A stretch of DNA of 62,950 nucleotides, filler included, from Kipferlia bialata (Eukaryota): NCBI GenBank assembly GCA_003568945.1. It is 3 parts of 3 records of this genome, joined end to end, with 100 filler letters (N's around TTAATTAATTAA, not from the genome) between each part and the next. Parts side by side here need not be neighbours in the genome. Positions count along the whole stretch, not along the records: positions 1 to 22,952 come from BDIP01000270.1; 2 more parts are not named here. One strand, given 5' to 3'. Positions 1 to 61,395 of this stretch are shown one piece after another; position 1 is the stretch's first letter, and each line of letters begins with the position of its first letter. Under the pieces are notes generated by a model. The model did no database searches. It worked only from the letters and a program-made list of their open reading frames with translations, and was not told where the DNA came from. Position numbers and translations under genes: made by a program.

Positions 1-48
<48 letters not shown>

Positions 49-63
49 TCTCTTATACCCCAG

Positions 64-3000
64 AGCTGTGCTGCCTAAGCTCCGTGTAGACATGCCCAAG
101 TCCCTTGGTCTGCCCCTGACCTGTGTGGGGGAGGTGTCCAGCACACCCCTTACACTCACAAACACAGGTATATATATATATTATATAACTAATGTATATA
201 TGTATATATATGTATGTATGGGTCTGACCTGTGTGGGGGAGGTGTCCAGCACACCCCTCTCACTGACAAACACAGGTAGCCTCTCTCCCTCTCTCTCTCT
301 ATACACTCTCAGTATCTGGCCTATTAGTAGTATGTCTCTCTCTTTATCTCTCTCTCTCTCTCTCTCTCTCTACACCCTTACTGTCAGGCGATGTCCCAGC
401 TGTGTATGAGTGGAGGGCCAAGGCACCCTTCTCCCTAGAGCCTAGGACAGGGGTCATTGGAGTGGGGCAGAGGTATACTTATAGTATTACAGATATACAT
501 GATGGTATATATGTGTATAGAGAGAGAGAGAGAGAGAGAGTACCCTTCTCCCTGGAGCCTAGGACGGGGGTCATTGGAGTGGGTCAGAGGTATATATATA
601 TAAAAGTATCATATGATCCTTGTACTTCTATCCTAAGTGCCCCTGTCACTCTCTCCTTCCCCCCCGAGTGATGATTGTATTTTACACATTAATAATATAT
701 AGTGTAGACAGTGACTAACCCTAGCGCCCCTGTCACCCTCTCCTTCCACCCCGAGTCGGGTGGCACAGTGGAAGGCTCTGTAGTCTGTGTCCTATCACCT
801 AGTGGGATGGATAAGGGGGTCAGTGGATCATACCAGGTAGGGGAATCGAACCCAGGACCATGTGGATATCAACTGATGTCATTAACATGTGTTTTGATAC
901 CAGGTTGTCTCTGTCTGTGGCACTGCCAAGTACGCCTACCTCAAGTGCGAGGTGGAGAGAGAGACTACCCTAGACGCCGAGGAGGACAAGGAGGTGAGAG
1001 GCGTATGAATAGTGTCTTCACCGGGAATCGAACGCTGACCCTCAGGACCTCATGAGCGGGCGCGAGAGAGGTCTTGCCGCTAAGGAGGAGGAGGGAGAGC
1101 GGTCTCTGTCCTTTGGGGATGTGGCTGTGGGTACCAGTGAGAGGAGGACATTCTCACTCACAAACCTGAGCGAGGTAAGAGAACAGGTGATAATAGTGTA
1201 GTTACTGGGAATCGAACCCACACCAGGTGCCCGTGACTGTTTCCTCTCGGCTACTGAGTGAAGAGGAGGGTAGCAGAAGGGTTGGGCCTGGCAATGCCTT
1301 CAGCGTGTCCCCCAAGGTATGGTCTCTCTCTCTCTCTCTCTCCTTGCTTCCCCTGCTACGACCTCAGTCATTGGAAGTGTGCCCTCCGTGATCTCTCTCT
1401 CTCTCTCTCTCTTTGGACCCTTACTTAACCCCAGGATGGCGTTGTTGCCCCCTTTAAGAGTGTCACCTTCACAGTGAGGCACAAGTGCAACACACCGGGT
1501 GAGTATCTGTGTCATACAATAGCTCCATGTAAATATGTAATACTATTCGTTAATAACGATTCTCTATATACCTGTGTTAATGGCTCACTCCCAGGTGCCC
1601 AGAACACTGACACCGCAGTGGTCACCACCAAGGGCGGGATAGAGACTAGGGTGAGTGGATGTGTGTCTATATGTGTCTATATCACCGTCTCTCTCCCTCC
1701 CTCTAAACCCTTAACACCAGGTCTCTCTCTCTGCCCACACCATTGGACCCACCGTGTCTCTCTCTGAGAATGCAATGTACTTCGGAGGGGTGGTACCCGG
1801 GGAGTCAAGGTACCTTCTCTCTCTTTCTATCTCTCTTTAGACCAGTTCAATTTACATGTCCCACTATATTTCCCTCCCTGCTCCACGATCTCTCTCTCTC
1901 TCTCTCTCCTCCTTGCCCCTTATATCAGGTCCCACTTTGTCTCCCTCAACTCCACCTTCTCCCGCCCCGTTGCCTTCTCTCTCTCCCTGCCCGAGGCCAA
2001 GGTATCAGAATGTGTACATATACTGTTCCTACAATATGTACCTACAATATCAGTATATATAAATTCTGACACTAGGAGAGGGACACTGGCCCAGGTGTAT
2101 CTGCACCCCTATGTGTCAGTCCCTGCAGTGGGGTGCTGCAGCCCAATACCCCCATCAGGATCAAGGTATACTCTATATGCTACATATGCTACTCTATACA
2201 GTATATAGTATATATATATATACTATAAATATACTCTATATATATACACTATATATATATATATGTGTGTGTGTCAGTCCCTGCAGTGGGGTGCTGCAGC
2301 CGAACACCCCAATCAGGATAAAGGTATGTTATGTCTACGCAATTTTCACTATATATAATATGTGTATATATATATATACTATATATATGTGTCAGTCCCT
2401 GCAGTGGGGTGCTGCAGCCCAATACACCCATAAGGATTAAGGTACAGAGCATTCACAGTATATACCATTTACTTCTATACTTGGTATATGCACCATTTGA
2501 ATGTGTGTCAGTCCCTGCAGTGGGGTGCTGCAGCCCAACACCCCAATTAGGATTAAGGTATCACATATCTACTTCGACACACAAAGATATAGATGGTTCT
2601 CTCTCTCTCTCCTCTCTCACTCTCAGGTCACTCTGTGTCCCCCCGCGTCCTGTCCACCCATGCCTGTGGGGTGAGTTCTCTCTCTCTCTCTCTCACACAC
2701 ACACTTCCTTTCTATCAATATGAATGTATATATCTATATAGAGTCACAATATAGTCTCTCTCTCTCTCCCACCTCACCATTTGGCCTAAAGCCTCTCCTC
2801 ATCGATAGATATGTAGGTGTTGTGTCTGTTGCTGGCACTGCCCCTGTCCCCTTCACATATATACTACATGCACACTATGAATGCATATAAATTTGTGTAT
2901 ATGTATGTATGTACGTCTAACGTTAGTTACGTAGGAGCAGTCTCTGTGGCTGGCACTGCCCCTGTCCCCTTCATCTGTGCTGGGTCTGTGGTGCCATCAG

Positions 3001-4748
3001 ATCAGGACAGTGTTGCCAGGTATGTATACAATATATATATATTATATTTATATTGTTTCTCTATCTCTCTCTCTCTCTGTCTCTACACCCTTATTGACCC
3101 TAGGCCTGCCTTTGTGACCCCTGCCATGGTACTCAGATACATGGGAGTCAGAGAGAGCCTATCCTTCGATGATGTCCAGAGCTGGGTCGGAAAGGTAAGA
3201 CCAATTATCCGCCTCTACAGGGATTCGAACCCAGGACCTCACCCCCAGGAAGCTGGTGACGATGACACTGACATGTCTGAGTCCCCCCTCTATGATGCTG
3301 GGTATCCCGAGTATGCTGGTCCCACACCCTCTCTGTCCTACATGCCATTGCACCCATCGTTGGGGATGGCAGCGGCACTAGGTATATAAGTATTGAATAT
3401 AGAAGTGTGTGTGTGTCATATATATATACCCTCCCTTAGCTACATGCCCTTACACCCGTCACTGGGGATGGCAGCTGCGCTGGGTATGAGAAATGTATAT
3501 ATATAGATATACATGCATATAGCTACATGCCCGTACATCCACCACTCGGAATATGTATTGATACATATATGTATTTGTATAGAGATGTATGGTGTTTATT
3601 CAATATATACTCATCCTCAGGCTTCTCCGAGGGCCCCAATGCCATGAGTGCCAGTCCCCTTGTCCTCAGCACAAGGACAGTGGTGTTCCCAAGGTCTACA
3701 GGGTTAAGGTATGGGTATATATTTGTGTATCACACGTTGGCATTCACATTTGTTCATGTACAGATATATGGAGCAATGCACTCTCTCTCCCTCTACACCC
3801 TTATTCCAGGGTCGAGAAGGAAGTCTTGGTCTCCAACACATCATCCTACCCACTGCGGTGCATTGTGTCATCAGGTAAGAGAATAATAGAGAGAGGGGAA
3901 GAGATTAGTGTAATGAGCGGGAATCGAACCCAGGACCACCCTCACCCCAGGTGGCATGGGCACAGGCCACAAGGGAGACTTCTCCCTGTCTACCGAGGCA
4001 TTCCTCGTGCCACCCAACTCTGGGTTCCCTCTCCAAGGTATTTTACTCCCTCTTCTCTCTCTCTACACCCTTATATGAGGTGTCCTGTTGCAGGTACCAA
4101 TCCCTCTCTCTCTCTCTCTTCCTACCCGTTTCCTTGAGGTGCAGTGTCATCATGCACTCTTCTCTCTCTCTCTCTCTTTCTCTAACCCCTAGTACGCTAC
4201 ACCCCCAAGAGGCTTCGTACTGTTTCCTCCTGCACCCTGACTGTGATGGCATTCACCCCTGACTGCCTGAGGTGGCAGCTGTTCAAGAGACAGGTAATAA
4301 CCTACTATATATATATATATCCATAATATATTTTACCTATTATATATATATTTGTATATATCCATGTATAATATGATATATACTGACTCTCTCAGATGGC
4401 AGCTGTTTAAGAGACAGGCATGTACATGTGTACATATACACACATATATATGTACATATTTTTCAGGCCATCTTCGCCCCCCTATTTGCCTCTATTTTTC
4501 CATTCTCTTATTTCTCTCTCTCTCTCTCTCCCTCTAATTCCTAGGCAATCCCCGCCCCCCTGTGCGCCTCCATTTCCCTTGTGGGCAGCTCTGTCCCCAC
4601 CACATCCACTCCCCCACCCGTGTCCCTGTCCCTCCACCCCACCCACTCACCCCTGCCAATCGCAAACGCAGAGGTATATATGTATACTAATAGTGGTTCT
4701 GTTTTCAACATATTCTTCCCGTCGAACGTGCAGAGCTAGATTGTCTAT

Positions 4749-4794
<46 letters not shown>

Positions 4795-5737
4795 GCACAG
4801 GTTGACCAGTACCTGTGCCTCCCCCCCTCTGCCCCAGGGTGTGCCACCTCAGTGTCTGTGTCAGTGCACAACCCAGCTCAGGTAATAATATATATATAAT
4901 ATATATATAATATACGTATATATTCATATACTCTTTGTATATGTCATGTAGTGATATAGTCTCCTCCTTATCTCAGGACCGCATGGTTGTCCTTCCAGAG
5001 GGCATGTACCTCTACACCCTTATTCTCTTCTACACCCTTATCTCAGGATCCCATGGTTGTCCTCCTAGAGGGCATGTCCCTAGGCACCAGTGGAGACACC
5101 TCAACACAGTGGACACCAGGAACAGGGGTATGTACTCATAAAGTACACCCAGCGGGAATCGAACCCGCATCTCACCCCCAGGCAAGCGGCCTCCTCCTGG
5201 CAGACACTGACGTCATCGCCTTACCCCCTGGTGCCAGTAGTGTCATCACACTCGCTGGGGTGCCCCCTCAGCACTCTCTCCTCGGGAGGTACGTCTCTTT
5301 CTCTCTCTCTCTCTCTCTCCATGTACACACAAACATTAGAGAGGTCATATATACTCTTTGAAGAACCTCGGAAGGTACCCTTACTGCTCCTCTCTCTCTC
5401 TCTATATATATACTCTTTGAAGGTACGTTTCATGTCTCTCTCTCCGAGTGTAACATTTGAGCGATATCATTTGAATACAATGATATATTTTATTCTTTCT
5501 TCCTATTTCTCCCTTATTGTCAGAGCAAAGTCCAAGAGTGCCGAGAGCACCATACCCCTGACACTATATATAATATAAATATTAATATCTATATCTACGT
5601 TAGAAGATATTTTGCTCTCTTCTCTAACTGGCGCCTTACTGTTAGGGGAAGGTCCAAGAGTGCCGAGAGCACCATCCCCCTCAGGATGAGGCTGAATGCA
5701 TCCAGTAACAGTGTGGTCAGTTGCAAGGTATACACTC

Positions 5738-5770
<33 letters not shown>

Positions 5771-6488
5771 GCATATATATCCCCCTGAGGATGAGGCTGA
5801 ATGCATCCAGTAACAGTGTAGTCAGTTGCAAGGTATGTTCTAACATAGACAGTACTTTTGTTTGCTTGCCCTCACATCCCTAATACCAGGTCATCCCCTC
5901 TGGTTCCCACTCTCTCTCTCTCTCTCTCTCTCTCTACCCCCTTACTTCCAGGTCATTCTCTCTGGCTCTACCCCTGACATCCGTGTGAGGACAGGGCTCG
6001 AGACAACACCTCTCGTCACTGGGAAGGTACCGTGAGTATGAACAGTATACTCATTTCCAAATTGATATGTGATGTAATATGAAGTCACATGTTGTTGCAT
6101 GGTGGAAAATATTGTTTCATTAACATATTGAAGTATACTATTAGTACTGGTCTCCGTATACTTATTGTAGAGTGGCCCCCGTATGCACCGACCCATATAC
6201 TGTATATGAGTGACCTCTCTCTCTCTCTCTCTCTCTCCCTCTCTAGTACTAGTATATTGTACTTACAGCAGGGTGGCCCCCGTATACACAGACCCATTGT
6301 TGCCCTGCCCACTGTGTCTGTGGGCAGCAGGGTCAGTGCGGTACTGTCACTGGTATCTAGGTTAGTAATGTAATGGTATATATATGCAAGTATATATACA
6401 GTGTATATATATATTATACTAGTATATATGCCCTGCCCACTGTGTCTGTGGGTAGCAGGGTCAGTGCTGTGCTGACACTGGTGTCAAG

Positions 6489-6519
<31 letters not shown>

Positions 6520-9443
6520 CCCCCCCCCTCTCTCTTACTCTCTCTTACTCCTAGGGCCTCCACCCCCACTGACATATCCATCCGTGCCCCCCTGTGCTCT
6601 GGACTGGACTGTCTATCCATATCACCAGAGGCACTGACACTCGGACCTAGAGAGACAGCGCAGGTATATTAATATATGCATCAATATATATATATTAATA
6701 TATACTATTGTACGTATAGTGTATATATAGTAGTATATCACCAGAGGCACTCACACTTGGACCTAGGGAGACAGCGCAGGTATGTATATATATACTGGCA
6801 TTGAGTGTTGTGAACTATATATGAATTGTGTGTCCTAACCCCCAGGTTCAGGTCACTCTCAGAGGTGACACCTTTCCCCCTTCATATACATAATCATTCA
6901 TATATATATTTGAATATTTCTCTTATATTTGTTATATGTACTCACTGTTAGGTCCAGGTCACTCTCAGAGGTGACACCTCTCTCCCTCTGGGTCCCTTTG
7001 ACGAGTCACTGTCCCTGTCTGTCACACCAGGTGTGTGTGCGTCTCTCTCTATCGCTCTCTCTCTACATATGTATATATTCTAATGTATATATATATGTAT
7101 TGGGTCCTATCCTCACCCCAGCTGGCATGGCACCATCACCCCTTTCGATCCTCAGGGCATTGGGATCAGGTATAGCAACATATGTATAGAATATATACTG
7201 TATATACTATATATATATTATTAATGTTGGCATGGCACCATCATCCCTCTCCATCCTCAGGGCACTGGGATCAGGTATGCATCTGTATATGTATATATGT
7301 ACTGTATATATACTATATATATATATATAGTATAGTAGTTGGCATGGCACCATCACCCCTGTCCATCCTCAGGGCACTCGGATCAGGTATGCCTCAGTAT
7401 ACGTATAAATATATGTATATATATGTATTACTGTATATCAATATCTATAATAGGTATATATACCCTCTGTCAATCCTCAGGGCACTCGGAACAGGTATAA
7501 CTGTATATGTATACTCTATATACTCTCTCTCTCTCTCTCTCTCTCTCTTACTCTTAGGTGGAACTGCCCTGCCTGCCAGTGCCTTCCCTGCCCCCCTGTC
7601 AGGTGTAGTAGAGACAGAGGAGGAGGAGAGAGAGAGAGAGAGCGCCATGGTCAGACTGGTGGGAGAGGTGGTACGCAGAGACGTCACGGCTGAGCCAGCA
7701 AGGTAAGAAAAGAAGAGAGAATGTACCAAGCTGGAATCGAACCCACAGCCTCCTAACAACCAGACTGTCCCTGGACGCTGTCAAGGAGAGGGAGGAGGTC
7801 TCCTTTATCGTGACACTCCATAACAACGTGGCTAGCGCTGTGCCATTTGCTGTGCAGATGGATGAGGGAGAGAGAGAGGACATGGAGGGTACCAGTAAGG
7901 GTGTAGCCTCTTTGAATAAGGGTGTAGTGCCCTTTGGCTCTGTGGAGCAGGGGACTGGGCATGTCATGGTGGAGCCTTGCTCAGGTACATATGTATATGT
8001 ATACACACACCCATATGTATATATATATAGAGAGTGAAAGAGAGATAGGGAGCATGTTATGGTGTAGCCATGCTGATATATGTATCAGTAGTATGAATTA
8101 TTCTCACTCTCTCCCCCTCTACACCCTTAATATCAGGTGTGATCCCTGCCGATGGCAGAGTGAGACTCTTTGTCAAGTACTCCCCACAGCGGCTCGGCCT
8201 GATCAGGTACCCAGCTCTACGTTTCTCTCTCTCTCTCTCTCTCTCACACCCTACACCCTTTTCTCACAACTAGGGCCTCTCTCAATGTCAACCTCTCTGC
8301 CTCTGCCCTCTCTGGTGTATCTCTCTCTCTCTCTCCCTATATTTATACAGACTTACCCCCAGGGCCTCTCTGAATGTCCACCTCTCTGCCTCTGCCCTCT
8401 CTGGTGTGTGCACCGGAGGAGAGGATGAGGGGGAGAGAGAGAGAGATGACGAGTGTGGTGCAGTGGTGAGGGTACCCGTGACACTCGAGGCTAGACTGCC
8501 TAGCCTACTGATCAGGTATGTATATGAACACACTGGGAATCGAACCCACGCCCTCCGAGTCTAACACTAGCACGGTTGCCTCCAACTGCACCTCCACCCA
8601 GCTCTATGACTACATATATGTACACACAGGGAATTGAACCCACGCCATCTGAGTCTAACACTAGCACGGTGGCCTCCAACTGCACCTCCACCCAGCTCTA
8701 TGACTACATCGATGTCAATGCACTCAACAGACACCTGCAGGGAGAGAGAGACATACACGAGATCACTCTCACAGAGGGTATGGGTGTATTAATACATATT
8801 TATATGACCAAATTGTACATATATATATGGGGAATGTGTATATGTTGAGATATACCCTCATTGCTACAATATTCTTGATGCTTACACCGATATAGTTAGT
8901 ATGTGTATTGTTATGTGCTTACACCTAGGTACCTTGCAGGAGCAGCAACTTGCTCTGGAGCACATTGAGACGTTCCCAGTACTGTTCAGGTATCTCTCTC
9001 TTGCAACCTCCACTCCTAAGGAATTGTATGAAAATCTATCCTTCACTCGTCTTCCTAGGACTCTTTAGATACATGTGTCTCTACCTCTCTCTCCACATTA
9101 ATTGTTTACTCACTCCAGACCCTCTGTCCCTGCCTCCACACCCCTCCTCTCTCCCCCCCCCCCCTATGTATGTATATATGTAGCCCATTATAGTTTCTAA
9201 TCCTAGGCCCTCTGTCCCTGCCTCCACCCCCCTCCCTCTGGGTGCACCCTGTGCAGACCCAGATGCTCATAGGTATATGTATAGATAGAGAGAGAGATTG
9301 ATATATAGAGAGGTAGAGAGGTTGATAGATATAGATATATTTGCATGTGTATATATACATCTTCCACTGGGTACACCCTGTGCAGACCCAGACGCTCATA
9401 GGTATAAGGATAGATGTGTATATATAGAGAGAGAGAGAAAAGA

Positions 9444-9486
<43 letters not shown>

Positions 9487-9767
9487 CATCTACCACTGGG
9501 TACACCCTGTGCAGACCCAGATGCTCACAGGTATGTGTATATATACTGGTAGATATATATTAGTATATATATTATATCTTGTTAACGTCCCTCTCACTCC
9601 CAGCACTGACAGGGTCACCCTGGGACTGGAGAACCCTGGACCACTCACGGTACGTCAATGATACATATAAGTGTATGCATATACGTATATAGTGTATATA
9701 CTGTATGTATCCTTATACATCAGGTCACCCTCAGTATATCTGTCCCAGGTGTGCAGCAGGACATGCC

Positions 9768-9808
<41 letters not shown>

Positions 9809-10010
9809 CTAATATCAGGTCACTCTTCGTATACCTGTCCCAGGTGTCCAGCAGGACATGCCCTCTCTCTCTCTATATATATATATATATTTATACTAAT
9901 ATCAGGTCACCCTCCGTCTATCTGTCCCAGGTGTCCAGCAGGACATGCCCACTGCACCATGGGCCAAGCAGCCACCTACTAAGGTATGTATAGTATATAT
10001 ATAGCACATA

Positions 10011-10047
<37 letters not shown>

Positions 10048-11997
10048 TTGTGTATATACTCTATATATATACTTGGACATGCCCACTGCACCATGGGCCA
10101 AACAGCCACCCACTGAGGTGTGTGTATTGTTTATAGTATAGTACACATTGTGTATGTGTGTTCCCTGTGTCCTAACTCGCGTTATTCTCTATGCTAACTC
10201 GCGTAGGAGGAGGCCACCATCCGTATGTATGTAGACAACGGTGTCTTTAGCACCTCCTCTGTGACTGTCACCCTGGCCCCACAGGAGAAGGGGCGGATAT
10301 CACTCTTCCATAGGCACATATACAGGTATGTATATGTATATATATATATATACAGGTATATAAATGTGTATGTATACTGTCACCCTGGCCCCACAGGAGA
10401 AGGGGCGGATATCCCTGTTCCACAGACATATATACAGGTGTGTGGATGTATATTCATATATATATATATGGGTATATTAATGTATATGTCAACTGTCACC
10501 CTGGCCCCACAGGAGAAGGGCCGGATAACACTCTTCCACAGACATATCTATAGGTGTTGTATGTAGTGTATATACAAAATTACATATAGACATATATACA
10601 TAGGTGTATATATATATGGTACATGTGGCATTTCATGAGAAGGGGAGAATATCTCTCTTCCACAGACATATCTACAGGTATGGAAGAATATATCCTTCTC
10701 ACTCTCTCTGTCTGTCTCAACACCCTTAATGTCAGTGGGGTGCATGAGCTCCGTCTGCTCTCTCTCTCTCTCTCNNNNNNNNNNNNNNNNNNNNNNNNNN
10801 NNNNNNNNNNNNNNNNNNNNNNNNNNNNNNNNNTCTCTCTCTACACCCTTAATGCCAGTGGTGTGCATGAGCTCCGTCTGCTCTGTCAGGTGGATGACGG
10901 GAGGGCATTCCTCCTATTGCTGTTAGGTTAGTAATAATATATATATATGTAGTATGTACATATACTGATACTGAAGTACTCTCCCTCTCTAACCGGCAGG
11001 CCAGACCCTTAACACACACACACACACGCGCTCTCTCTTTCGCTCTCTCTCTCACTCTCTCCCTCCCTCTCTAACTGGCAGGTCAGACCCTGACCACTGC
11101 ACGTGTCCCCACCCCGTCCTATCTCTATTTCTCTCTCTCTCTCTCTCTCTCTACACCCTTATTCTCTCTCTTACCTTCAGGTCAGACCCTGACCACTGCA
11201 CGTGTCCCCACCCCGTCCTCCCTCAGAAGGCCTACCCGCTCCAGAGAGAGACTGTCTGCAACAGGTATATTGTACCAATGCTAGATTCCGGGAAAATACA
11301 TTCTCATGGGCTAACGTGGATACAAGTTCTACGCACTATCATCTCTGTAAAGAGAGACTATTGCGTGCTTCTGAGTGTATACCAACTCCAGGTGCCAGCA
11401 GGCGTGGCATGTACACCAGGGACGCAGAGAGAGAGGCAGAGGCAGAGGGCACAGCCTCCCCTGTCGTGCTGACCCCACTCTCACTCCCACTCGTACCAGT
11501 GGCACTAGGTATGTATATATATACACAGATATATGTATTCATTCCACTCATTCCACTAACATTGTACATATGAATATACAGTATTAGTATTGTGGGTATA
11601 TACTTATGCCATGTATATTAACCCCAGGCGAGGCCTGTCCCCCTGTGCAGCTCCTGACCCTGTCCAACCCAGCGGCAGAGCCAGTGGTGTACTACATACC
11701 TCAGGTAGTGTGTGTATATATTATTATTCATATACGTATATGTATGTATATATGTGTGTTCATGTATATACTCTGTCCAACCCAGCTGCAGAGCCAGTGG
11801 TGTACTACATACCTCAGGTAGTGTATATATATATAAAGATATTAATGCATATGTGTATGAATATATGTGTGTCCTTGTATATACTTTGTAGATATGTGTA
11901 TTGTGTGTGTGTGTTGTGAGAGTATGTGAGTCTCGCTCTCCCCCCTTCAGCTACCTTGACTCTCTCTCTCTCTACATATATACATATATACACACAC

Positions 11998-12028
<31 letters not shown>

Positions 12029-13272
12029 AGATCAACTACCTCTTGGCTGGGATGACTCACTCTCTACATTTATATGTGTGGCTAATTCCAGACTGCTCTT
12101 GACAAGATTAACTCCCTCCTTGGCAGGGCTGACTGCCCAGTGCTGCACGTACTGAACCCCCTCGGCATTATCCCAGGTTGGTGTACTTACTGTACAGTTA
12201 TAGTATATGTATACATATAAATATATATATAGAGAGAGAGAGGGTCAGAGCTGACCGATACTAGCCATGGATATTGTATGGTATTGTTTCTATGTTAAAG
12301 TACACACATATGTATCTAACCCCTCCTGATGTCCGAGTCCTCCATAGTCCCTATTCTCTCTCTCTGTCTCTCTCTAACCAAAGGCCACTCCTCTACCGAT
12401 GTACGTATCCTCCACAGGCCCCTACAGGCATGCAAGTTCAGAGTGCCCCTGCCCATACACGTCATGTCCCAGGTACTCTCTCTCTCTCTCTCTCTCTGTA
12501 CACCCTTTATAGGTTACTGTATGAAGATTTTGCCCCTGATGGGAATCGAACCCATGGCCTCCCCCCTCTAATAGTAGGCCTCTGCGTCTGGTGCCTCCCA
12601 GGATGATGAATATACAATTACTATTTTTGCCCCTGATGGGAATCGAACCCATGTCCTCCACCTTTTCATACTAACCCTAGGCCTCTGCCTCCGGTGCCTC
12701 CCAGGATGATGTGGCACCAGTGGAGGTCACAGAGACACAGCTGGAGGTACGTAAATATAGATATGTGTGTGTGTACGGTATGGGGAGAGAGAGGGAGAGA
12801 GAGACTAGTGGATTTGACGGAGACACAGCTGGGAGTGTATTTAATATTTGTGTGTAGATATAGATACATGGGTAGAGAGAAATGTAAAGGGCCCACGTAC
12901 TTCTCTCTCTCTCTGTCTGTTATAGGTATATAGTGAAATTTCTCCCTTTCTAACACCCTTACCCCAGGGTGTGTATGACCTGCTTAACTCGCGGTTCGGA
13001 GGAGACAGGGAGAAGGAGAGCGTCACAGGTTAGATTGATATGGTATATGTTTGTAGTAAGACTCTATTGATGTGGGCTCGATCCGCGCTGAGTATATGTA
13101 TATTCTAGATAGGCTGAGTATATATTCTAGTCGTTGTGTCTTCCCCGAAGTGCTTCTGGGAGGACCAGATATACGACTCATCATTTAGTACTTGTACAAG
13201 TATTAGTCTTACCCTCACTCCTAGGCCCTGACACTGTTACCTTCAGACCCACCGGCATGAACATAATAGTAT

Positions 13273-13303
<31 letters not shown>

Positions 13304-13449
13304 AGTATATATACATATAATACACACTATCATATATACATATATGTGATATGCTATCAATAGGCCCTGACACTGTCACCTTCAGACCCACTGGCATGAT
13401 ATACATATACACATATTACATAGCTATATAATGAATTGGACATTTTATG

Positions 13450-13487
<38 letters not shown>

Positions 13488-13584
13488 CATTAGTATGCTT
13501 ACCCCTAGGCCCCGACACTGTCACCTTCCGCCCCACTGGCATGAACAGTCCCAGCAGAGTAACAAGGGCATTGCAGGTATTGAC

Positions 13585-13616
<32 letters not shown>

Positions 13617-16600
13617 CATACTCCTTATACATATAGTATATATATGTGTATATATACATATACAAATTTCTATATACCACTGGCATGAACAGTCCCAGCA
13701 GAGTAACAAGGGCATTGCAGGTATTCTACACCATGTTTCCTATATTTTACATATACTCTATTACTAATGTGTTCCTACTAACCCCCCAGAGATCCAGGGC
13801 CCGTTCCCAGATGAGGGACAGAGAGTATATATATATAACATAATAAGTATATATAGTATATTTAACCCTCCAGAGGTCCAGGGCCCGATCTCAGCTGAGG
13901 GACAGAGAGGCAGATAGGGAGGAGGGAGCACTGGTGCTAGGAGACGATATGGAGAGGTAATGTGTATATACTCTCTCTCTCTCCCTCCCGAGCCCCTTGT
14001 CATCAGTAGCAGAGGTCCTCCCCTGCCCTTAGATATATATATATGTATGCGTATGTTTTAATGAATATGTATATGTATAATCGTTACCACTTACTTATAC
14101 CAGCAGAGGATCTAGCCCTGCCCTTGGGTCTATCCCCCCCCCCCCCCCCCCTTTCTCTCTTCCCCCCCCCCCCCCCATAGCCCCTTATCATCAGCAGCAG
14201 AGGATCCTCCCCTGCCCTTGGGTCCAGGGGTGGAGACATGGGCACTAGGGATAATGCCCCCACCCCCTTTGCCACTGTGGAGATCATCGGTCTATCCTAC
14301 GACCCTAGGTATAGTGTACCTATATATACATATATATACATATGTGTGTATACAATCTGCCGCTTACTCTTAGGGAGCTTCTCATCGAGCCGTCCCAGCG
14401 GTCCCTCAGTGCTCTCTCCCTCCCACCCCACCTCTCTCGGTGCGAGGTGGACAGGCCCCTCAGGTCAGTATATACCTCTCTCAATATAGTATATCAGTGG
14501 TACATTTACACTAGTGTATTCATATATAGCTATACCGATAAAGAGGTGGACAGGCCCCTCAGGTCAGTAATTATGTATATGTGTGTACTATATCAGTGCC
14601 CACACTATCTGTGGCTCTCTCTCTCTCTCTCTCTCCACCCATGTGTCAGTGGTACCCTCACTGTTGGTGGTGCCCTCTCTCTCTCTCTCTCTCCCCGCCC
14701 CCCGACAGTCTTCTCTCTCTCTCTATTTATGTATATGTATGTATACCTTATTTCAGTGGTGCCCTTACTGTCGGTGGTGCACTAGGCTGTGAGGGAGTGG
14801 GACTCGCCACACTCAGTGCTGGAAAGGTACTTGCTAGTAATTGACTATGTACATAATACTATATTGAGAGATAGTGTGTGTGGGTGTGAGGGAGTGGGAC
14901 TCGCCACACTCAGTGCTGGAAAGGTATATACATGTATACTATATTATATATACTATTGTATATATACTATAGTTTATATACTTATACATAGCGGGTGTGA
15001 AAGTGGGACTCGCCACCTTGAGTGCTGGAAAGGTATGTTTATATATATATATATACTAAATATATAGAATATACTATGTGCTGTATGTGTATATATAGTG
15101 GGTGTGAGGGAGTGGGACTCGCCACACTCAGTGCTGGCAAGGTATATACATACATGTATATAAGTATACTGTTATATATATGCAATGATATATACGCTAT
15201 TTTCACTATATTCACTATATGTTTATATGTCATTATTTTATATTGTGTAGGCTGTGAGGGAGTGGGACTGGCCACACTCAGTGCTGGAAAGGTATACAAT
15301 ACAGTATATCTAGCCTCTCATCATTCTTCCACTGCTCTTCAGTGACTCTCTGTCTCTCTCTCTCTGTCTCTCTCTCTCTCTCTCCCTTTCTCACTCTAGG
15401 TCTCCTTCTGCGGTGTGCCCTGTAACTCAGTGTCCAGTACCGTACTGACTGTGGAGAACACACACTGCGAGCCCATCAGCTTCAACATCATAGAGCCACA
15501 GTCACTAAAGGTATAGATATAAGTATACATGTCCTTTGGCATATATTCAATTGTGGATAGTATTACATTTGAAGTATATACCAACTGCCACTAACCTCAG
15601 GGCTTTGGCCACCTGTCTGCCTCCCCATCCTCTGGCACACTGGCAGTCGGAGGGACCATCAATGTGAAGGTATTGTCATCACTGCTTGTATATACCTCTA
15701 TTCAAATACGTATATATTTCTGTGTATACATATTGATATATACACCTATATTGACGTCAAGGTTGAGTTGCACGTGTACGACGTCCCCGTTGCCATCCTA
15801 GATGACATCGGTGTGCACGTGGAGGCCCTAGGTACAGGTGCCAGGGTATCAGACGACAGCTCCTGGCAGACCTCTCTCGCCAACACATCCCGCACCATAG
15901 AGCACTCCATGAACGGTGCTATCTCGCGTATGTCTGATGTCGGTGGCGGCATGCGCCCAGAGTCCTCTACTAGAGGTGGGAAGGGCGCCCCTAGCAAGCT
16001 GGCCTGTACCATAGAGGAGCGCCTCACTGGGTTCAAGCCTGTTGCCAACGAGGACACCCTCTATGCCATCCTCTGCGTGCACTCTCACTTGTCTAATGCC
16101 CTGCCCCTGTACGAGGGTGCCCCCAGTGGCCTGTGTGCATCCAACAACGCCATATGCGTACCCACCGTGGTGCCAGGTGGTAAGCCAGCCTCATATACAC
16201 CAGATGCCCTACTAGTGGGGTCTGTCGTCAATGAGCTGGTCTCCGAGGCTCCAGTTCAACAGTACGTCGCTAGTGCAGTCGCCCACGGTCCTGCCCCCGC
16301 TGCCTACCAGGTCTTCGGAAGTCAGGCGACCGCTGAGACCTCTGAGGACTATGAGGGTGTAGACGGTGACTTTGAAGAGAGGCAGGGAGAGAGAGAGGTT
16401 GCAAGAGAGAACGTGGACATTGACTCTCTGGAGTACGCTGCCAATATCGGAGGGGAGGCGGCGCTCTCATTTGATATGGTTGCAGATGCAGTGGATTACG
16501 AGGTTAGTATGTCTATATCTCGCATTATTTGATAGTGTTGTATCTATATCTCGCGTTGATTTCACTAATATCAGGTCATGTATGCACTTGAGAGTGTCTT

Positions 16601-16775
16601 CAGAGGTGTTGTCTCTGACGTTGTATCTGGTGCCGAAGAGGGAAAGAGAGAGGATACTGCTGAGTATGATAGGTACGAGGAGACTGCTCCCCTAGAGTAT
16701 GAGGGAGAGGGAGAGGGGGAGAGAGAGGATGACTACTATGCAGATGAGCTTGCTCAGAAGAGCATGGCCCGGTAG
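64..16775 (+). CDS. Very large multi-exon ciliary protein with tandem Ig/ASH-like domains, CFAP65/CCDC108-like; 5' end outside window
   Basis: Manually spliced GT-AG exons give repeated ASH/PapD-like segments (e.g. STPLTLTNTG-DVPAVYEWRAKAPFSLEPRTGVIGVGQ; LSFGDVAVGTSERRTFSLTNLSEVPV; VSPCSGVLQPNTPIRIKVTLCP), a large exon at about 15762-16503, and an acidic C-terminus ending TAG at 16775. The family call comes from recalled CFAP65 architecture, not a database search. Confidence 0.6.
2111..2560 (+). repeat. Exon-end plus donor-site echo array (4 copies)
   Basis: TGTGTCAGTCCCTGCAGTGGGGTGCTGCAGCC...AAG|GTA at about 2111, 2269, 2387 and 2501, separated by (AT)n-rich spacers. Confidence 0.9.
10775..10833. 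other. Scaffold gap inside a (CT)n microsatellite
   Basis: N run flanked by CT repeats, with no linker sequence. Confidence 0.9.
14786..15295 (+). repeat. Exon-end plus donor-site echo array (5 copies)
   Basis: GGnTGTGAGGGAGTGGGACTnGCCACACTCAGTGCTGGnAAG|GTA at about 14786, 14882, 14993, 15100 and 15250. Confidence 0.9.
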
Positions 16776-22952: not shown

Positions 22953-23052
22953 NNNNNNNNNNNNNNNNNNNNNNNNNNNNNNNNNNNNNNNNNNNNTTAA
23001 TTAATTAANNNNNNNNNNNNNNNNNNNNNNNNNNNNNNNNNNNNNNNNNNNN
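22953..23052. other. Artificial contig-concatenation spacer
   Basis: Exactly N44 + TTAATTAATTAA (stops in all six frames) + N44 = 100 bp; identical to the spacer at 45992. Confidence 0.95.
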
Positions 23053-26179: not shown

Positions 26180-26790
26180 ACTCTGTTTTAACTCTGTTTC
26201 ACATTGTTTTGACTCAGAGTCCAGTGATTGAACACTGTCTTTGACCTGGTTAAGACAGTCTGTGATTGATTCTACTTCGTAGCTAGGTGATTTCCCGTAT
26301 ATATGCTGTGAGCATTTCGACAGCATTTCATTATTGTAGCTACATTGTCATCCAGAGGCTTGGGATTGGCTGAAAGAGTAAATCACGCTTTATCCTTAGG
26401 TGCATGTGCTCTATATAGGAGCCTACTTCTAGTACAGGGTATCCTTAGCCACACCCACTTCGAAAGACAGTCTAATTATGACTCTAAGTATGCGCAGTAA
26501 CACTGCCATCTGAAAAACACACTCACAACCAGCGAGAAACTCCCTTGACAAAGAAACTAAGATACACCATTTATGCACATTAGTCACCACATTGAGGCGA
26601 TATTACTCACACAGCCACCCATAAATAAAATCTGGCACCGGTAGAGGGCGAAGATAGACATCTTGCAGGATACATGCAACACATGTACCAGTACACAAGA
26701 CCCTGAGACTCTCTGGTGCTCTGTTAATCCACAACATACACCTACAGCACTCGCAGTACCTATATAGCCAATACAAGGCTATTGGATAAT

Positions 26791-27579
26791 CTACTGCTCA
26801 CTGTACATGGCCACAAGAGCGGCACCAATAGCCTAAGGGGTGAGAAAAGGAAAATAACTACAAGGGGAATCGAACCCAGAGACATGAGAGAATGAGACTG
26901 TTACCTGGCTAAGCTCTCCGAGAGTGGCTGGCACAATCTCCATGCACTCCCTCTGCTTGGGGAAGAGGTAGGGCTCGGCAGCGGCCTTGATGTTGTCGAG
27001 GTACCTGGCACGGAACTCATCGCTGGTATCAGTAAAAAACCTAGAGGACCTGGGTTCGACTCCCACTCGATGCAGTTACTCTCTTACCTGGTGCTCTCGG
27101 GGTCCATGAGTCCTCCTCCCAGGACAAAGTATGCGGGGTCAAGGGCCATGGCAAGGTTGGCAACGTGCACACCAAGGGCCTTGGCCTGGTATAAGGGGCT
27201 AGATAGAGAGAGAGAGATTGGTTGGCAACGTGCACCCAAAGGTACCTTACTCTGACGCCGTATAAGGGGCTAAAGAGAGAGAGAGAGAGAGAGAATTACC
27301 TGGAGGTCGAAGATCTCGGTGGCCATGGCATCACCCTTCTGGGCCAGGCCCCTAAGGGAGAAGGCCTGCTCCTAAGGGGTGAGAGGTGTGGGTTCGATTC
27401 CGTTAACTAACACATAGAACTGAACATATGCATGCTACCTGAGGAGGAAGGAAGTGATTATACTCACTTTATAGTACTATATAATACAATGTGTATGTAC
27501 CTTGGGGGGGAGGGTGCTGTTGTTGAGGGGGTGGTCTGGGTACTTGGGCAGCAGGTGCTGGATGTACTGGGGGAGGCCA
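26791..27579 (-). CDS. ROK-family sugar kinase (glucokinase-like), C-terminal half, 5 exons
   Basis: Spliced product GLPQYIQHLLPKYPDHPLNNSTLPPK/EQAFSLRGLAQKGDAMATEIFDLQ/AKALGVHVANLAMALDPAYFVLGGGLMDPEST/DEFRARYLDNIKAAAEPYLFPKQRECMEIVPATLGELSQ/AIGAALVAMYSEQ*. Contains the ROK C-terminal motifs A..GD..A..IF, LDP..FVLGGG and IGAAL. Confidence 0.8.
26855..27415. repeat. Three tRNA-3'-half-like elements in ROK gene introns
   Basis: Cores at about 26865 (minus strand), 27052 (GGTTCGACTCCCACTCGATGCA) and 27390 (plus strand). Confidence 0.75.
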
Positions 27580-27728: not shown

Positions 27729-28306
27729 CTGTGCTGGGCGTATAATCAACTCTCACCTGGGGACACAGAGGGACGTCAGACACTGATGCGTGATATCATG
27801 CCTAATGCCAAGGGGACGCCGCATGTAGAGACCACCTTTCAGTGTGACTTCGGATACAACATTCACTGTGGGGAGAGGTTCTACTGCAACCACAACTGTG
27901 TGATACTCGACACGGGGAGAGTGGATATAGGTGACGATGTGATGCTGGCTCCGTCTGTGCAGATATCATGTGCGTACCATCCCCTTGACGCACCGACGCG
28001 GGTGTCAGGTGGGTGGCATTCATTCTTGTATATATATAAACTCTAAGACATTATAGTTCTGTCAGAGAACCAGACGGACCAACCAAGTACCCCCATCCTG
28101 ACTCCCTAGGTCTGGAGCTGTCTAAGCCTGTGACCATAGGCAACAGGGTCTGGCTAGGTATGGGGGCACAGATACTGCCAGGTGTCACCATAGGGGATGA
28201 CTGCGTGGTGGGTGCTGGGTCAGTGGTCACTAGGGACATACCCCCTGGGTGTGTGGTGGCTGGGGTACCCGCCAGGGTCATCAGGCACGTGGGGGACGAG
28301 GAATAG
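27729..28306 (+). CDS. Maltose/galactoside O-acetyltransferase (hexapeptide repeat, Maa/LacA-like); first exon not found
   Basis: [51 protein letters not shown]...[intron about 28009-28109]...[54 protein letters not shown]. Confidence 0.9.
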
Positions 28307-45991: not shown

Positions 45992-46091
45992 NNNNNNNNN
46001 NNNNNNNNNNNNNNNNNNNNNNNNNNNNNNNNNNNTTAATTAATTAANNNNNNNNNNNNNNNNNNNNNNNNNNNNNNNNNNNNNNNNNNNN
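45992..46091. other. Artificial contig-concatenation spacer
   Basis: N44-TTAATTAATTAA-N44, same as the spacer at 22953. Confidence 0.95.
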
Positions 46092-46161
46092 TTTATTAAA
46101 CGAGTACTCATTTTCCCCCCCCCCCCCCCCCCCTCTCTCTCTCTCTTCTCTCACCCCTCAG

Positions 46162-49100
46162 TCCTTCGAGGTGCTCTGGGACTCCAGGCTCAACACACCT
46201 GGGAGTGTACTGTGCAATGCATCACACCGGTCCAGGTATGTATTTGTATATGTGTTCACGTGCTCTCACTCTCTCTTCGATATATGTATCGGCACTCCTA
46301 TCACTGTCTGTATCTCACTCACCCCTTTAGGTTCTACCTAGCCCTCCGCACCAGCACTGGATGTATGGTGGTCAGTGGCAGGGAGAGGGAGAGAGAGGCG
46401 CCCTTGTGGACAACGGTATGTGACCACTACTCTCTTATACACATACACAATCATATCCCTTACCTCAGATAGAACTGCATGATGGAGTCACCCCCTACCG
46501 CATGATTCTCTCTCTCTCCCCCCCTTTCTCTCCCTAACATCAGCTTGAGTTGCATGATGGCGTCACCCCCTACAGCATGATTCTCTCTCTCTCCCTCTCT
46601 CTCCCTAACCTCAGCTTGAGTTGCATGATGGTGTCACCCCCTACAGCATGGTTGTATCCTCCCACATCGGTGTGGTCACTCAGAGAGAGGATACCGCAGA
46701 GGGAGAGAGAGAGAGAGAGATGGACGATGGTGATGTGCGTTCCACCTCGTATACCGAGAGTGACAGTGAGGGAGAGGGGGAGAGGGAGACAGAGAGAGAC
46801 CTGCTGTGGCTCCTGTGTCCTGAGAGGATACTCGTCTACGATATAGCACTCGGTGAGTATGGGCATGTCTCTCAATCGTGGAACTCTATATGTTGTAATA
46901 CTCTATTACTCACCTAATAGGCACTCTTGTATGCTCTCTCTCGCACATCCAGATTGAGAGGGAGAAGGAGAAGGGCGGCAAGAGGCGTGAGCGTCTGTCA
47001 GTGCGTGACGTTGTCTCTCTGACCCCCTCCCCTTCTTCCTACCCCCTGGTACTCTCTGGGTCTGGGTCTCTATACACTCTGGCGGAGGGTGTACTGGAGG
47101 AGGAGGAGGGTGCAGAGGGAGAGAGAGAGAGGGGCTATGTCTGCAAGAGAGTGGCCAAGGGCGTCATGGTGGCCGGTACTGCCAATGCGGTGGTCCTACT
47201 GGGAGACAGAAAGGGACACAAGGTATACAGGGAATCGCATATATATATATATATCATATGCGCATTCTACGTATGTATGCGTGTATACTGTCCATTTCCC
47301 CCCCTCATCCTCCAGGACGGCTCTGTCACTGTCTACCCCCTCTCTTCCAGACCTGTCACCCTATCCCTACCTCTTAGGGAGGGGGAGAGGTGCACCGCCG
47401 TTGGGGCAGGTATCATTGTGTGTATAAGTATTCACTATATGGTAGTTTAATGTTGCGAAGAAGACTGTTTCTTTGACACGTATTATGTTGCATTTCTGGG
47501 AACTAGATATGTTCAGTGTATGTGTACCTCTCTCTCCTCACCCCAGGTCTCTCCCTAGTGTGTGTGGGCACCAGCATGGGATCCATCTATGTATACGACA
47601 CAAGGTAAAGACAGCTACGATGAGAAACATCTCTGTGTTTTCCCCTCTATATGTTTACCTATGTATGGAATATGAATCACTTATATATGTGTTTCTGATA
47701 TAAGGGATGACGAGTGTTCTCTTGTCGGCACCCTCCATCCATCAGAAGGGACAGACAGTAAGAGAGAGGTGACTGCCTTATCTGTCCTGACAGTTGGTAC
47801 AGACACATACCTGTGCAGCAAGGGAAAGGGTGCAGAGAGGGTGCATCTGTACAAGATACCCACTGCCACTGATGCAGAGAGAGACAGGGAGAGTGAGAGG
47901 GAGAAGGGGCTGGTGCCGGTACCAGTGCCTGTAGGGACAGAGGTATGGGTGTGAATATTCATTATTTCATAATTGTATATATATATATGGAGAGATAGAG
48001 GTTGAAAGGGGTACAAATGTATATATGTATAGGTCTCTTTGTATACGTCTAATTATCAGGCCGTTGTGACTGGTGGCAGGGGCCTCCTTCTGTGTCACAG
48101 ACCACCCACCCCCTCCCCCTCTCCCTCTCTGTCCCTGTCCCTCTGTGCCCCCCTGTCCATGAGTGCAGCAGGCAGACTGGCCACAGCATGTGCCTCAGGG
48201 ACAGTGAAGGATATAGAGAGGATGCTCAGGTATGACATTGTGTATATGTATATGTGATTCCATTATTGTTATAGTGAATATATTAGTAGAAGACGGTGTC
48301 TCGCTTGGATATACCCAAGGGAGGCCGACCCCACCCCCATATTGAATTATATACAATGTAGCATACACAGTGTATATATCTACTCTCTCTCACCTCAGGG
48401 AGGCCGAAGCCCCTCTCCTCATTGCACCCCATGCCGTGGTGTCAGCAGTGCTGTTTGCGGCATATGAGGCCAAGCTGAGGGCAGAGAGAGCCAGTGAGTC
48501 AGGGTCATACATAGTGACAGAAGAATCAGGTATCTCTCTCTCTCTTCCCACACTTCAGACTGAGACTCATATATCAATGGATATATGTATACACTTACTT
48601 ACACCCAGCAGAGGGAGAGAGGGACACCTTTGCCCAGAGGCACCAGAGGGAGAGGGAGAGAGAGAGAGAGATGGTGCACGGGGAGAGGCACAGAGAGATT
48701 GAGAGAGAGGCCGTGGCCAAGCTCGACGCCCTTCTCGAAGGTACTATAGTCTCACGATTTATCATTTACTACACGACACCAGCACTAACTCGATAGGCGG
48801 CATCCTGCACCCCTCTGGTGCTGGTCTCACCCACTGTCCTGTGTATACAGTAGGGGGAGTGTGCATAGACCCCATGGAGGTGCTGCTGGATAGGGCACCC
48901 CCTAGCCCCATGTGTCGAGATACATCAGTATCCATGCCTGTGCTGCACCTGGCAGTGCTGCTCGATAACGCACCGGTAGTTAGGTAGGGGGGGTGTATAC
49001 TTTCAATTGTACATGTAAACGTGGCCTCACCCCCATGTTCAGAGACATCCTTTGACAACCCTATACTTATTAACACGTACCTGTGTATATATACGCAGTA

Positions 49101-55100: not shown

Positions 55101-55355
55101 ACGTCCATCTCGGGTGCCATTGTGCACATGACTGTACTCTACTTCCGGATCTCCTACACTGTCTGTATATATACTTGTCCGTGCCATCTTATCCTCAGTG
55201 ACACCTCCATCTCCGCTGCCATTGTACATATGACCAGTGACACAGAGAGAGAGACAGAGGCAGAGAGTGAGGCAGATGCCGCAGAGCATGCCCTCCAGAC
55301 ATCCCTGGACATATCCACGCCCAGGACACGGCAGACATCCTTGCTCATTGGACAG

Positions 55356-55394
<39 letters not shown>

Positions 55395-60757: not shown

Positions 60758-60799
<42 letters not shown>

Positions 60800-61152
60800 C
60801 TCCTCATCCTTCTCACTAGTAGGTGTGCAGAGAGGTCTTCAGCACCACAGTTCGCAGACACCATTGCAGGTATGCTTGTACCATTATACAATGTAATGAC
60901 AACACTTCCATCACTGTTACACGTACAAGTTCACTATTACATCTGCTGGCTCTTACTCTAGGAACTGTGGCCGTGTGATATGCGATGAGTGCTCTATCAG
61001 AAAGGTCCCAATCACAAAGTTCAGACGCAAGGTATGCCTCTTCTCTCTCTACTTCTCTTCATAGATATATATATATATATATGTGTGTTTATGTGTAGCA
61101 ACAGTGCATGTGTGTATTCTTCTCGACATCAGGAGAGGGGGTTCAAGGAGTG

Positions 61153-61193
<41 letters not shown>

Positions 61194-61395
61194 GGCCCTC
61201 TTGCTTCCTCTCTATCTGGGCATGTGTCCATACCATTCTAACCAGGAGCGTGTGTTCAATGTATATATATATTGTATTATTCTATAAAGATATACATCTC
61301 ATCCTCAGGAGCGTGTCTGTAAGCAGTGCAAGGCAGCAGGTGGCCTGGATGCACTGACCCAGTTCAGATACTACGCCACACCCAACCAGTGGTAG
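46162..61395 (+). CDS. Giant multi-exon ankyrin-repeat protein with C-terminal FYVE zinc finger (possibly more than one gene; 5' end missing)
   Basis: Ankyrin motifs GRTPLLTAL, GRTLLHLAAQAG, GDVALHVAAREGH, GTPLHVACRAN, GKTPLILAVYH, GRTPLVLSVES. Terminal FYVE: GWVPDESAPKCQVCREVFSTTVRRHHCRNCGRVICDECS...ERVCKQC; stop TAG at 61393-61395. Confidence 0.8.

Follow-up and report, generated by a model that had tools for sequence, protein, structure and literature searches.

Lone B-box-like motifs in short introns of Kipferlia bialata are candidate TFIIIC sites

Fourteen motifs resembling the B box of tRNA genes, equivalent to the T arm, were identified in a 62,950-nt window of the Kipferlia bialata genome (GenBank assembly GCA_003568945.1); 12 are independent, and every one lies in the introns of two genes. 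The survey covered the whole window, made up of three contigs. Our preferred reading, which we hold with about as much confidence as doubt, is that these lone, extended B boxes are selected protein-DNA sites, most likely for TFIIIC in the manner of yeast ETC sites, probably seeded from tRNA-gene DNA and marking a short-intron class of their own. Judged by which letters are conserved, the motifs are candidate TFIIIC docking sites rather than the reverse-transcribed tRNA 3′ halves from which the original prediction derived these introns. TFIIIC B boxes had been raised there as a side option and appear to fit best among the options offered.

K. bialata is a free-living anaerobic protist. Host gene 1 (65..16775, plus strand) is 5′ partial and encodes a CFAP65/Hydin-like multi-Ig (ASH) protein with Pfam Ig_CFAP65/HYDIN/ASH domains. 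The annotated protein P0134 (1,942 aa) maps exactly to this gene via 55 GT-AG introns, nine of which carry the motif. A spliced contig of run X2, which is presumed to be RNA, spans positions 800 to 2150 and skips introns 837-903, 994-1045, and 1175-1226 as GT..AG, providing read evidence of splicing for 3 of the 12 host introns. Host gene 2 (26786..27579, minus strand) is the C-terminal part of a bacterial-type ROK sugar kinase (P0121) with four introns, three carrying the motif. Its spliced product agrees with the last 110 aa of P0121 and is colinear with glucokinase-type homologs of 342 to 351 aa (58 to 63% identity); the introns cut a gene whose 12 relatives, among the matches listed, are bacterial-type (judged without a tree). 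Only 2 of the 10 genes in the window carry motifs (P of about 1e−4), as do 12 of 173 introns, a set comprising the 55 mapped in gene 1 and 118 predicted outside it by a predictor that, in its own training gene (gene 1), placed 44 of the 55 exactly.

Twelve copies match the core GGTTCGANTCC exactly, against 0.04 expected by chance from shuffles, and two more have one mismatch, which bears out the predicted 14 sites across two genes. This core is the B-box consensus as printed in the accessible text of PMC3395662. The exact copies in the window are all intronic, with none intergenic. Recounting returned the predicted values for A73 (13 of 14 copies), C72 (11 of 14), CTA at positions 74 to 76 (three copies), and antisense orientation to the host pre-mRNA (13 of 14; 11 of 12 independent copies, P = 0.006). 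The 14 copies are not all separate, because 8546/8640 and 12552/12649 are tandem duplicates, each pair within one intron, and 12 are therefore independent.

In gene 1, all copies are on the minus strand. Motif 1 (831..860, tRNA numbering 44 to 73; site 852) lies at the 5′ end of spliced intron 837-903. Its positions 66 and 67 are the GT donor and 68 to 73 fall in the upstream exon, so the "acceptor strand + A" described for this site is not intronic, although all motif cores are in introns as predicted. The same intron has a 9-nt direct repeat at its borders, the sole such case. Motif 2 (1013..1042), with C at position 52, and motif 3 (1197..1226) occupy the spliced 52-nt introns 994-1045 and 1175-1226; motif 3 adjoins the 3′ splice site, and its predicted branch A, placed from the AG spacing, is the complement of T50. 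Motif 4 (3210..3239; 54-nt intron 3195-3248) is the sole copy with G73. Motif 5 (3909..3938) lies in a 76-nt intron (3875-3950), motif 6 (5144..5173) in a 54-nt intron (5128-5181), and motif 7 (7722..7751) in a 61-nt intron (7703-7763). Motif 6 has a full 5-bp stem and a weak 23-nt match to Escherichia coli tRNA-Gly (E = 0.07). Intron 8516-8664 contains an internal tandem duplication with motif 8a (8525..8554) and its duplicate 8b (8619..8648; A57; 4 differences over 30 nt), and intron 12473-12680 likewise contains motif 9a (12531..12560; full 5-bp stem) and 9b (12628..12657; 1 difference over 30 nt). The ROK gene carries motif 10 (26855..26884, minus strand) in the 72-nt intron 26833-26904, the sole sense-oriented copy, and two antisense plus-strand copies, motif 11 (27045..27074; 65-nt intron 27023-27087) and motif 12 (27383..27412; intron 27372-27500).

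Alignment of the copies revealed an invariant core at positions 51 to 62 and conserved bases at fixed spacing at 45-46, 48, 50, 66, and 72-73, with 64 to 70 free. Y48 (12/12), T66 (9/12), C72 (9/12), and A73 (11/12) each exceed position-matched introns (P ≤ 3e−4), some of the tested positions having been picked after inspection of the data. The tRNA-like register is thus genuine, with 48, 66, 72, and 73 conserved beyond position-matched nulls. Half of the copies have T48, position 72 is a pyrimidine in all 12, and the CA dinucleotide peaks at 72 only. Position 71 is a purine in 10 of 12 copies (G in five), and G71-C72 occur jointly in three. For comparison, 57 reference tRNAs were used, which are metagenome loci, mostly tRNA arrays, and not host tRNAs. 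A metagenome scan with the core and a Kipferlia-like acceptor yielded 24 loci and no Kipferlia-like introns; on inspection these loci proved to be tRNA genes or to resemble tRNA, and they served again as the reference tRNA set. T50 and T59 (each 10/12) are more uniform than in this mixed set. Positions 49 and 65 keep a tRNA-like composition, with T49 and A65 absent. Positions 67 to 71 contain 7% C compared with 31% in reference tRNAs (P = 2e−4), their GC content is indistinguishable from intron background, and pairwise identity at 64 to 71 is 0.30, equal to that of unrelated tRNAs.

As a correction to the predicted tRNA geometry, just 2 of the 12 copies have a full T-stem, and pairing is at chance level for 49:65 (6/12 versus 5.7 shuffled) and 50:64 (7/12 versus 7.2), whereas the reference tRNAs pair at 55/57 and 56/57, respectively; no T-stem covariation was detected among the 12 copies. 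None of the 12 has a 3′ CCA, although C74 occurs in five and C-T-A in three (P of about 0.01). Grouping the three CTA copies as a subfamily is not significant (11/17 identity, P = 0.08 per pair). ARAGORN found no tRNAs in the window, and the sole tRNA match of the tRNA clan in Rfam over 700-13000 was tRNA-Sec (E = 8.1). An A-box-like match lies upstream of 1 of the 14 copies, at background (0.06 per copy). The motifs thus stand outside any tRNA gene or polymerase (Pol) III unit, with no cloverleaf and no A box above background.

The cores themselves appear protected. Outer T-stem pairs are broken in 11 of 24 cases, which needs about 35% divergence, while the cores comprise 12 exact and 2 one-mismatch copies; 10% divergence would already predict about 12 one-mismatch cores (P = 3e−4). 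Cores with two or three mismatches show no excess in the 173 introns; a decay tail is missing. This within-window decay test favors selection.

The motif tags a distinct short-intron class. Nine of the 12 host introns are 52 to 76 nt, and within gene 1 the motif occurs in 7 of 11 introns of ≤80 nt versus 2 of 44 longer introns (P = 5e−5). A GTRAGA donor is found in 6 of the 12 motif introns and in none of the other 161. Ten of the 12 introns have a copy placed 10 to 33 nt from their 3′ end; a proposal that the 3′ splice AG corresponds to tRNA positions 32-33 was dropped given this spread. Motif introns have few microsatellites and abundant local duplications, and their 5′ parts are purine rich, with mutual likeness no higher than in other short introns. 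Boundary repeats average 3.7 nt versus 3.5 nt. The motif is missing from no fewer than 34 further short introns. An RNA structure common to the class was rejected, as one of nine introns folds better than shuffles. DNA-run depth is flat across three copies, and therefore no further contig aligned there at 85%. A link between the motif and intron gain may exist, in view of the distinct short class and of introns in a bacterial-type gene.

Several other origins were weighed against the preferred reading. Error-prone break repair or ectopic conversion could have copied short tRNA-gene pieces into introns with a template switch in the TΨC core, leaving functionless mosaics with a uniform core and two halves from different tRNAs. 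The tRNA-like composition at 48, 49, 65, 66, 72, and 73 without covariation, the perfect stems of two copies, the tRNA-Gly match of motif 6, and the local duplications agree with such mosaics, as does the lack of canonical NHEJ in metamonads noted in the available text of PMC8516963. Set against them, the C-poor positions 67 to 71 differ from reference acceptor strands and have background GC, T50 and T59 exceed the uniformity of a mixed tRNA set, and exact copies are confined to introns; we regard this origin as unlikely but deserving of some weight. Alternatively, a single old mobile element of tRNA origin (SINE or Introner-like) could have made the introns and left relics that are now functionless, which would account for the bias to short introns, the shared donor, the scarce microsatellites, the purine-rich 5′ parts, and the motif in three of four introns of the ROK gene. 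Such an element is nonetheless quite improbable: neutral decay cannot leave the core intact, and no target-site duplication (TSD) or terminal repeat, boundary-repeat excess, or additional contig accompanies the copies. The 0.30 identity at 64 to 71 and the background-level 5′ parts provide no whole-element similarity, which also tells against a single SINE family as source.

The single orientation of 11 copies and their placement near the 3′ end would suit a signal at the RNA level, with the pre-mRNA strand serving as a splicing enhancer, hairpin, or tRNA-fragment target that aids very short introns, and 3′ tRNA fragments some 46 nt long are abundant in the fornicate Giardia (PMC2577346). We think this very unlikely, given one reversed copy, one copy at the donor, the near absence of better-than-shuffle folding, and the many short introns without the motif; binding of tRNA fragments, one of the predicted options, is weakened because stem complementarity, which such a target should retain, is at chance. 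Most improbable is the predicted route in which the 3′ half of a mature tRNA was reverse transcribed to build each intron. The register ending at 72-73, the C74 and C-T-A counts, and the 3′ halves of Giardia speak for it, but CCA is absent, stems are broken without covariation, 67 to 71 are unlike tRNAs, there is no decay tail, and TSDs are lacking. A modified base at A58 is expected to give misreads or stops, and no A58 variants occur among the copies. In addition, known tailless retropseudogenes, as described in the accessible part of PMC5322556, are 3′-truncated L1-made copies with TSDs and so retain the opposite half. The Kipferlia copies resemble them as partial tRNA-like sequences without a poly(A) tail but comprise the 3′ third only.

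The preferred TFIIIC reading was compared with yeast ETC sites, in which, according to the accessible text of PMC3395662, the B box is followed on its 3′ side by 10 further conserved bases. The 23-mers in Table 1 of that paper, lined up by eye on TTC, span positions 50 to 72, and 8/8 end in G71-C72. Both sets, on this alignment, are lone B boxes without an A box, in which the middle is unconstrained and the tRNA-72 equivalent is a conserved C (8/8 in yeast versus 9/12 here); because all the yeast sites keep C72, this base does not in itself identify an acceptor stem. The rest of the extension compares less clearly, with purine 71 in 10/12, G71-C72 in 3/12, and A73 in 11/12 here. The eight yeast loci in that text are intergenic, with G71 throughout and frequent departures at 52-53, whereas the Kipferlia core is canonical, 71 can be G or A, conservation includes T66 and A73, and the motifs are strand biased and occupy half of tiny introns. 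TFIIIC binding has been demonstrated for the yeast sites and is a prediction for those of Kipferlia. In yeast, the position equivalent to 48 (offset set in this analysis) is a base contact of tauB, and bases farther downstream that ETCs conserve are contacted by tau91 (PMC11724288). Against the ETC reading, A73 lies outside the yeast 23-mer, G71 is a minority base here, the yeast 48-equivalent contact is a G:C pair but half of the copies have T48, and the absence of T49 and A65 fits a mosaic of tRNA genes. Strand bias and the GTRAGA donor are not known ETC features and point to a common origin or an RNA-level effect. TFIIIC was found in Trichomonas but not in Giardia, a fornicate relative (PMC3369914).

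Other systems share some of these features. According to the accessible text of PMC6950938, Caenorhabditis elegans extra-TFIIIC sites are clustered (median, 1,207 bp apart), over-represented in introns, and often within putative tRNA pseudogenes. The Kipferlia motifs likewise form dense intronic clusters about 1 kb apart, as at extra-TFIIIC/CeRep3 sites, but have no A box or family similarity beyond the motif, whereas the worm sites carry A and B boxes and a recognizable repeat family. As with Introners (available portions of PMC9860276 and PMC12130899), there is a distinct short-intron class with its own donor motif that includes introns in a gene likely intron-free on arrival; unlike Introners, whole-intron similarity, terminal repeats, and TSDs are lacking. 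The word tRNA is absent from the main text of both papers as available. Judged by its listings, a literature search that covered subscription journals poorly returned nothing on introns of Kipferlia or Perkinsus that contain pieces of a B box or tRNA.

On the preferred reading, purifying selection would act on the double-stranded motif. TFIIIC, through its tauB part, would span roughly positions 38 to 77 and bind without Pol III recruitment, and bound TFIIIC may form a chromatin anchor or boundary within the host genes; it may also make Pol II pause locally where introns are very short. The antisense bias may arise as the G-rich 44-53 flank, which is C rich in the pre-mRNA, blends into the branch-point/acceptor motif, itself C rich, and it is because of this merging, we propose, that motif and acceptor fit in about 52 nt. 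The three ROK-intron motifs were likely gained late because the gene is bacterial-type; at least three sites would thus have arisen after it left bacteria and acquired introns.

The K. bialata genome contains 124,912 introns, argued to be ancestral (PMC5874029), and in this setting the motif marks out a separate class of introns that were probably gained late. Scaling up 12/173 from just three contigs suggests, as a rough figure, about 9,000 motif introns genome-wide. It is conceivable, though we consider it doubtful, that a genome-wide class of micro-introns, perhaps thousands, was born from tRNA-gene promoter DNA, the antisense piece supplying branch point and acceptor, and was kept as TFIIIC anchors that organize chromatin or pace Pol II. 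Were this so, a route of intron gain would also install a site for an architectural protein. If the motifs are TFIIIC sites, a metamonad would be using very short introns as slots for a chromatin-organizing factor reported missing in Giardia.

Exact matches to the B-box core GGTTCGANTCC were found at 12 sites in the window (0.04 expected), and two further sites carried one-mismatch versions of it. Searches for tRNA genes in the window using ARAGORN, and using Rfam over positions 700 to 13000, identified none. P0134, a CFAP65/Hydin-like protein, maps exactly onto the first host gene (65..16775, +) with 55 introns, nine of which harbor the motif. Two of these nine contain tandem duplicates of it; counting the ROK gene (26786..27579, −) as well, the motif is thus present in 12 introns, each representing one independent copy. 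A single spliced contig from run X2, presumed to be RNA, skips introns 837-903, 994-1045, and 1175-1226. Splicing out the four ROK introns generates a product matching the last 110 amino acids of P0121, the annotated ROK protein, and colinear with bacterial-type glucokinases. The N-runs at 22953-23052 and 45992-46091, flanking the TTAATTAATTAA linker, are contig joins, and genes on either side are therefore not neighbors. The genome of the free-living fornicate K. bialata contains 124,912 GT-AG introns, and the word "tRNA" is absent from the main text of the paper describing it (PMC5874029).

With the core and flanks numbered as tRNA positions 44 to 73, the counts of the original prediction were correct (A73 at 13 of 14 sites, C72 at 11, CTA at three, antisense at 13). 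The intronic tRNA geometry it described was borne out as a register, but at site 852 (831..860, −) positions 68 to 73 are exonic. The intron at this site, 837-903, is flanked by a 9-nt direct repeat that covers its two splice junctions; no longer repeat of this kind borders any of the gene's 55 introns, and 837-903 is a candidate for recent gain by duplication or break repair. The tRNA-like register is real. Relative to the same offsets in motif-free introns, conservation (each P ≤ 3e−4) was found at G45-G46 (8/12), Y48 (12/12), T50 (10/12), G51 (12/12), C63 (10/12), T66 (9/12), C72 (9/12), and A73 (11/12), C72 and A73 alone having been fixed in advance and the remaining positions picked after the data were inspected. 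CA falls at position 72 in eight copies and in at most two at any other offset from 64 to 88. Antisense within intron 13029-13508, a B-box-like variant at 13060-13085 bearing A54, C60, T66, and A73 is a possible degenerate 13th site; two-mismatch matches occur at chance level.

The motif introns form a distinct class. Within the first host gene, the motif occupies 7 of the 11 introns of ≤80 nt versus 2 of the 44 longer ones (P = 5e−5). A GTRAGA donor is present in 6/12 motif introns and 0/161 others, and microsatellites are rarer (2/12 versus 89/161). Eleven of the 12 independent copies are antisense (P = 0.006); on the pre-mRNA strand, the G-rich 44-53 flank reads C-rich and continues into the C-rich branch/acceptor motif, and the branch A that spacing predicts for intron 1175-1226 lies opposite T50. 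Read in antisense, a eukaryote-like sequence of tRNA-Pro type (L001:271-301, −) is nearly identical in layout to the 3′ end of a Kipferlia intron, with branch motif, C-run, and CAG; an acceptor can thus come from the 3′ part of a tRNA in antisense orientation. Most long introns in 1-16775 and 46092-61395 often hold degenerate tandem copies, from one to several, of the adjoining exon end or start. These duplications carry decoy GT/AG sites and are spaced by (TA)n or (CT)n (e.g., 2100-2560 and 14820-15300), and the long introns look like rampant local duplication converted into intron.

All 12 non-self ROK matches shared 70 to 76% identity over the matched exon, and those named were bacterial glucokinases; the ROK introns and their three motifs thus likely postdate a gene transfer. 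The ROK kinase (26786-27579, −) comprises only the C-terminal ∼135 amino acids of a 342- to 351-amino-acid bacterial-type glucokinase (58 to 63% identity), and its annotated N terminus is unrelated sequence from the opposite strand of the neighboring gene. The gene is truncated or misassembled, and the fragment was likely acquired laterally, with introns gained afterwards. Back to back with it lies a one-intron gene (27729-28305, +), bacterial in type by eye and presumably maltose/galactoside O-acetyltransferase-like, possibly a second transferred gene.

The origin from reverse-transcribed tRNA 3′ fragments that was first proposed is not supported, and mature tRNA halves copied in this way are the least probable source. 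Complete T-stems occur in 2/12 copies, and stem pairing is at chance: 49:65 pairs number 6 versus 5.7 in shuffled copies and 50:64 pairs 7 versus 7.2, compared with 55/57 and 56/57 in reference tRNAs, which are to be read as metagenome loci and not host genes. With site 852 excluded, C makes up 7% of positions 67 to 71 versus 31% in the reference tRNAs (P = 2e−4), and GC there equals the intron background. No copy has a CCA 3′ end, and intron boundary repeats are ordinary (3.7 versus 3.5 nt). A modified A58 is expected to cause misreads, and no copy in the window has an altered A58. A young repeat family was rejected: pairwise identity at positions 64 to 71 is 0.30, as between unrelated tRNAs, the 5′ parts of motif introns resemble each other no more than other short introns do, and depth in the DNA run X1 is level over three copies, so that among the matches listed no other contig is placed there at 85%. 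The longest string common to copies is 20 nt.

Outer T-stem pairs are broken in 11/24 cases, implying ∼35% divergence. At only 10%, ∼12 one-mismatch cores are predicted, whereas the 173 introns contain 2 (P = 3e−4), alongside 12 exact cores and no excess at two to three mismatches. This spectrum rejects neutrally decaying intact copies but not mosaics. Functionless mosaics of tRNA genes would give the tRNA-like composition that positions 49 and 65 retain, and metamonads are described as lacking NHEJ, which makes templated capture plausible (PMC8516963); we consider such mosaics unlikely, and leftovers of an old tRNA-derived intron generator improbable. An RNA-level splicing signal or target of tRNA fragments would accord with the 3′ tRNA fragments described in Giardia (PMC2577346), but no shared RNA fold was found among motif introns (1/9), and this role is quite improbable.

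The TFIIIC B-box option, also raised in the original prediction, is favored among these readings, the motif being ETC-like (extra-TFIIIC) in sequence pattern and a putative member of that class. In yeast, ETC sites are bound by TFIIIC in the absence of Pol III and combine a B box with a conserved 10-base 3′ extension. The eight 23-mers tabulated in PMC3395662 (Table 1), aligned by eye on TTC, span tRNA positions 50 to 72; their middles vary, and every one terminates in G71-C72. C72 thus occurs in non-tRNA TFIIIC sites and does not by itself prove that an acceptor stem was present. In the yeast structure, τB covers 40 bp with a base contact upstream of the box (position 48 by our own one-base offset), and τ91 touches downstream bases conserved across ETC loci (PMC11724288). 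In C. elegans, extra-TFIIIC sites form clusters with ∼1.2-kb spacing, are enriched in introns, and frequently coincide with putative tRNA pseudogenes (PMC6950938). The Kipferlia motif clusters in 2 of 10 genes (9/55, 3/4, and 0/114 introns; P about 1e−4), the 118 introns outside the first gene being our own predictions. An A-box-like match lies upstream of 1/14 copies, the background rate. Against an ETC-like role, the extension reads R71-Y72-A73 rather than G71-C72, and TFIIIC was reported as found in Trichomonas but not in Giardia (PMC3369914); an orthologue survey (PMC11811891) has no metamonad among its taxa.

Among the papers listed by the literature search, none was on B-box or tRNA-like motifs in Kipferlia introns, and the term tRNA gave no match in the searchable text of two introner papers (PMC9860276 and PMC12130899). 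We hold with roughly even confidence that the copies are selected ETC-like B boxes inside a class of very short introns. They would probably have been seeded from tRNA-gene DNA, and they may have helped to create the class.
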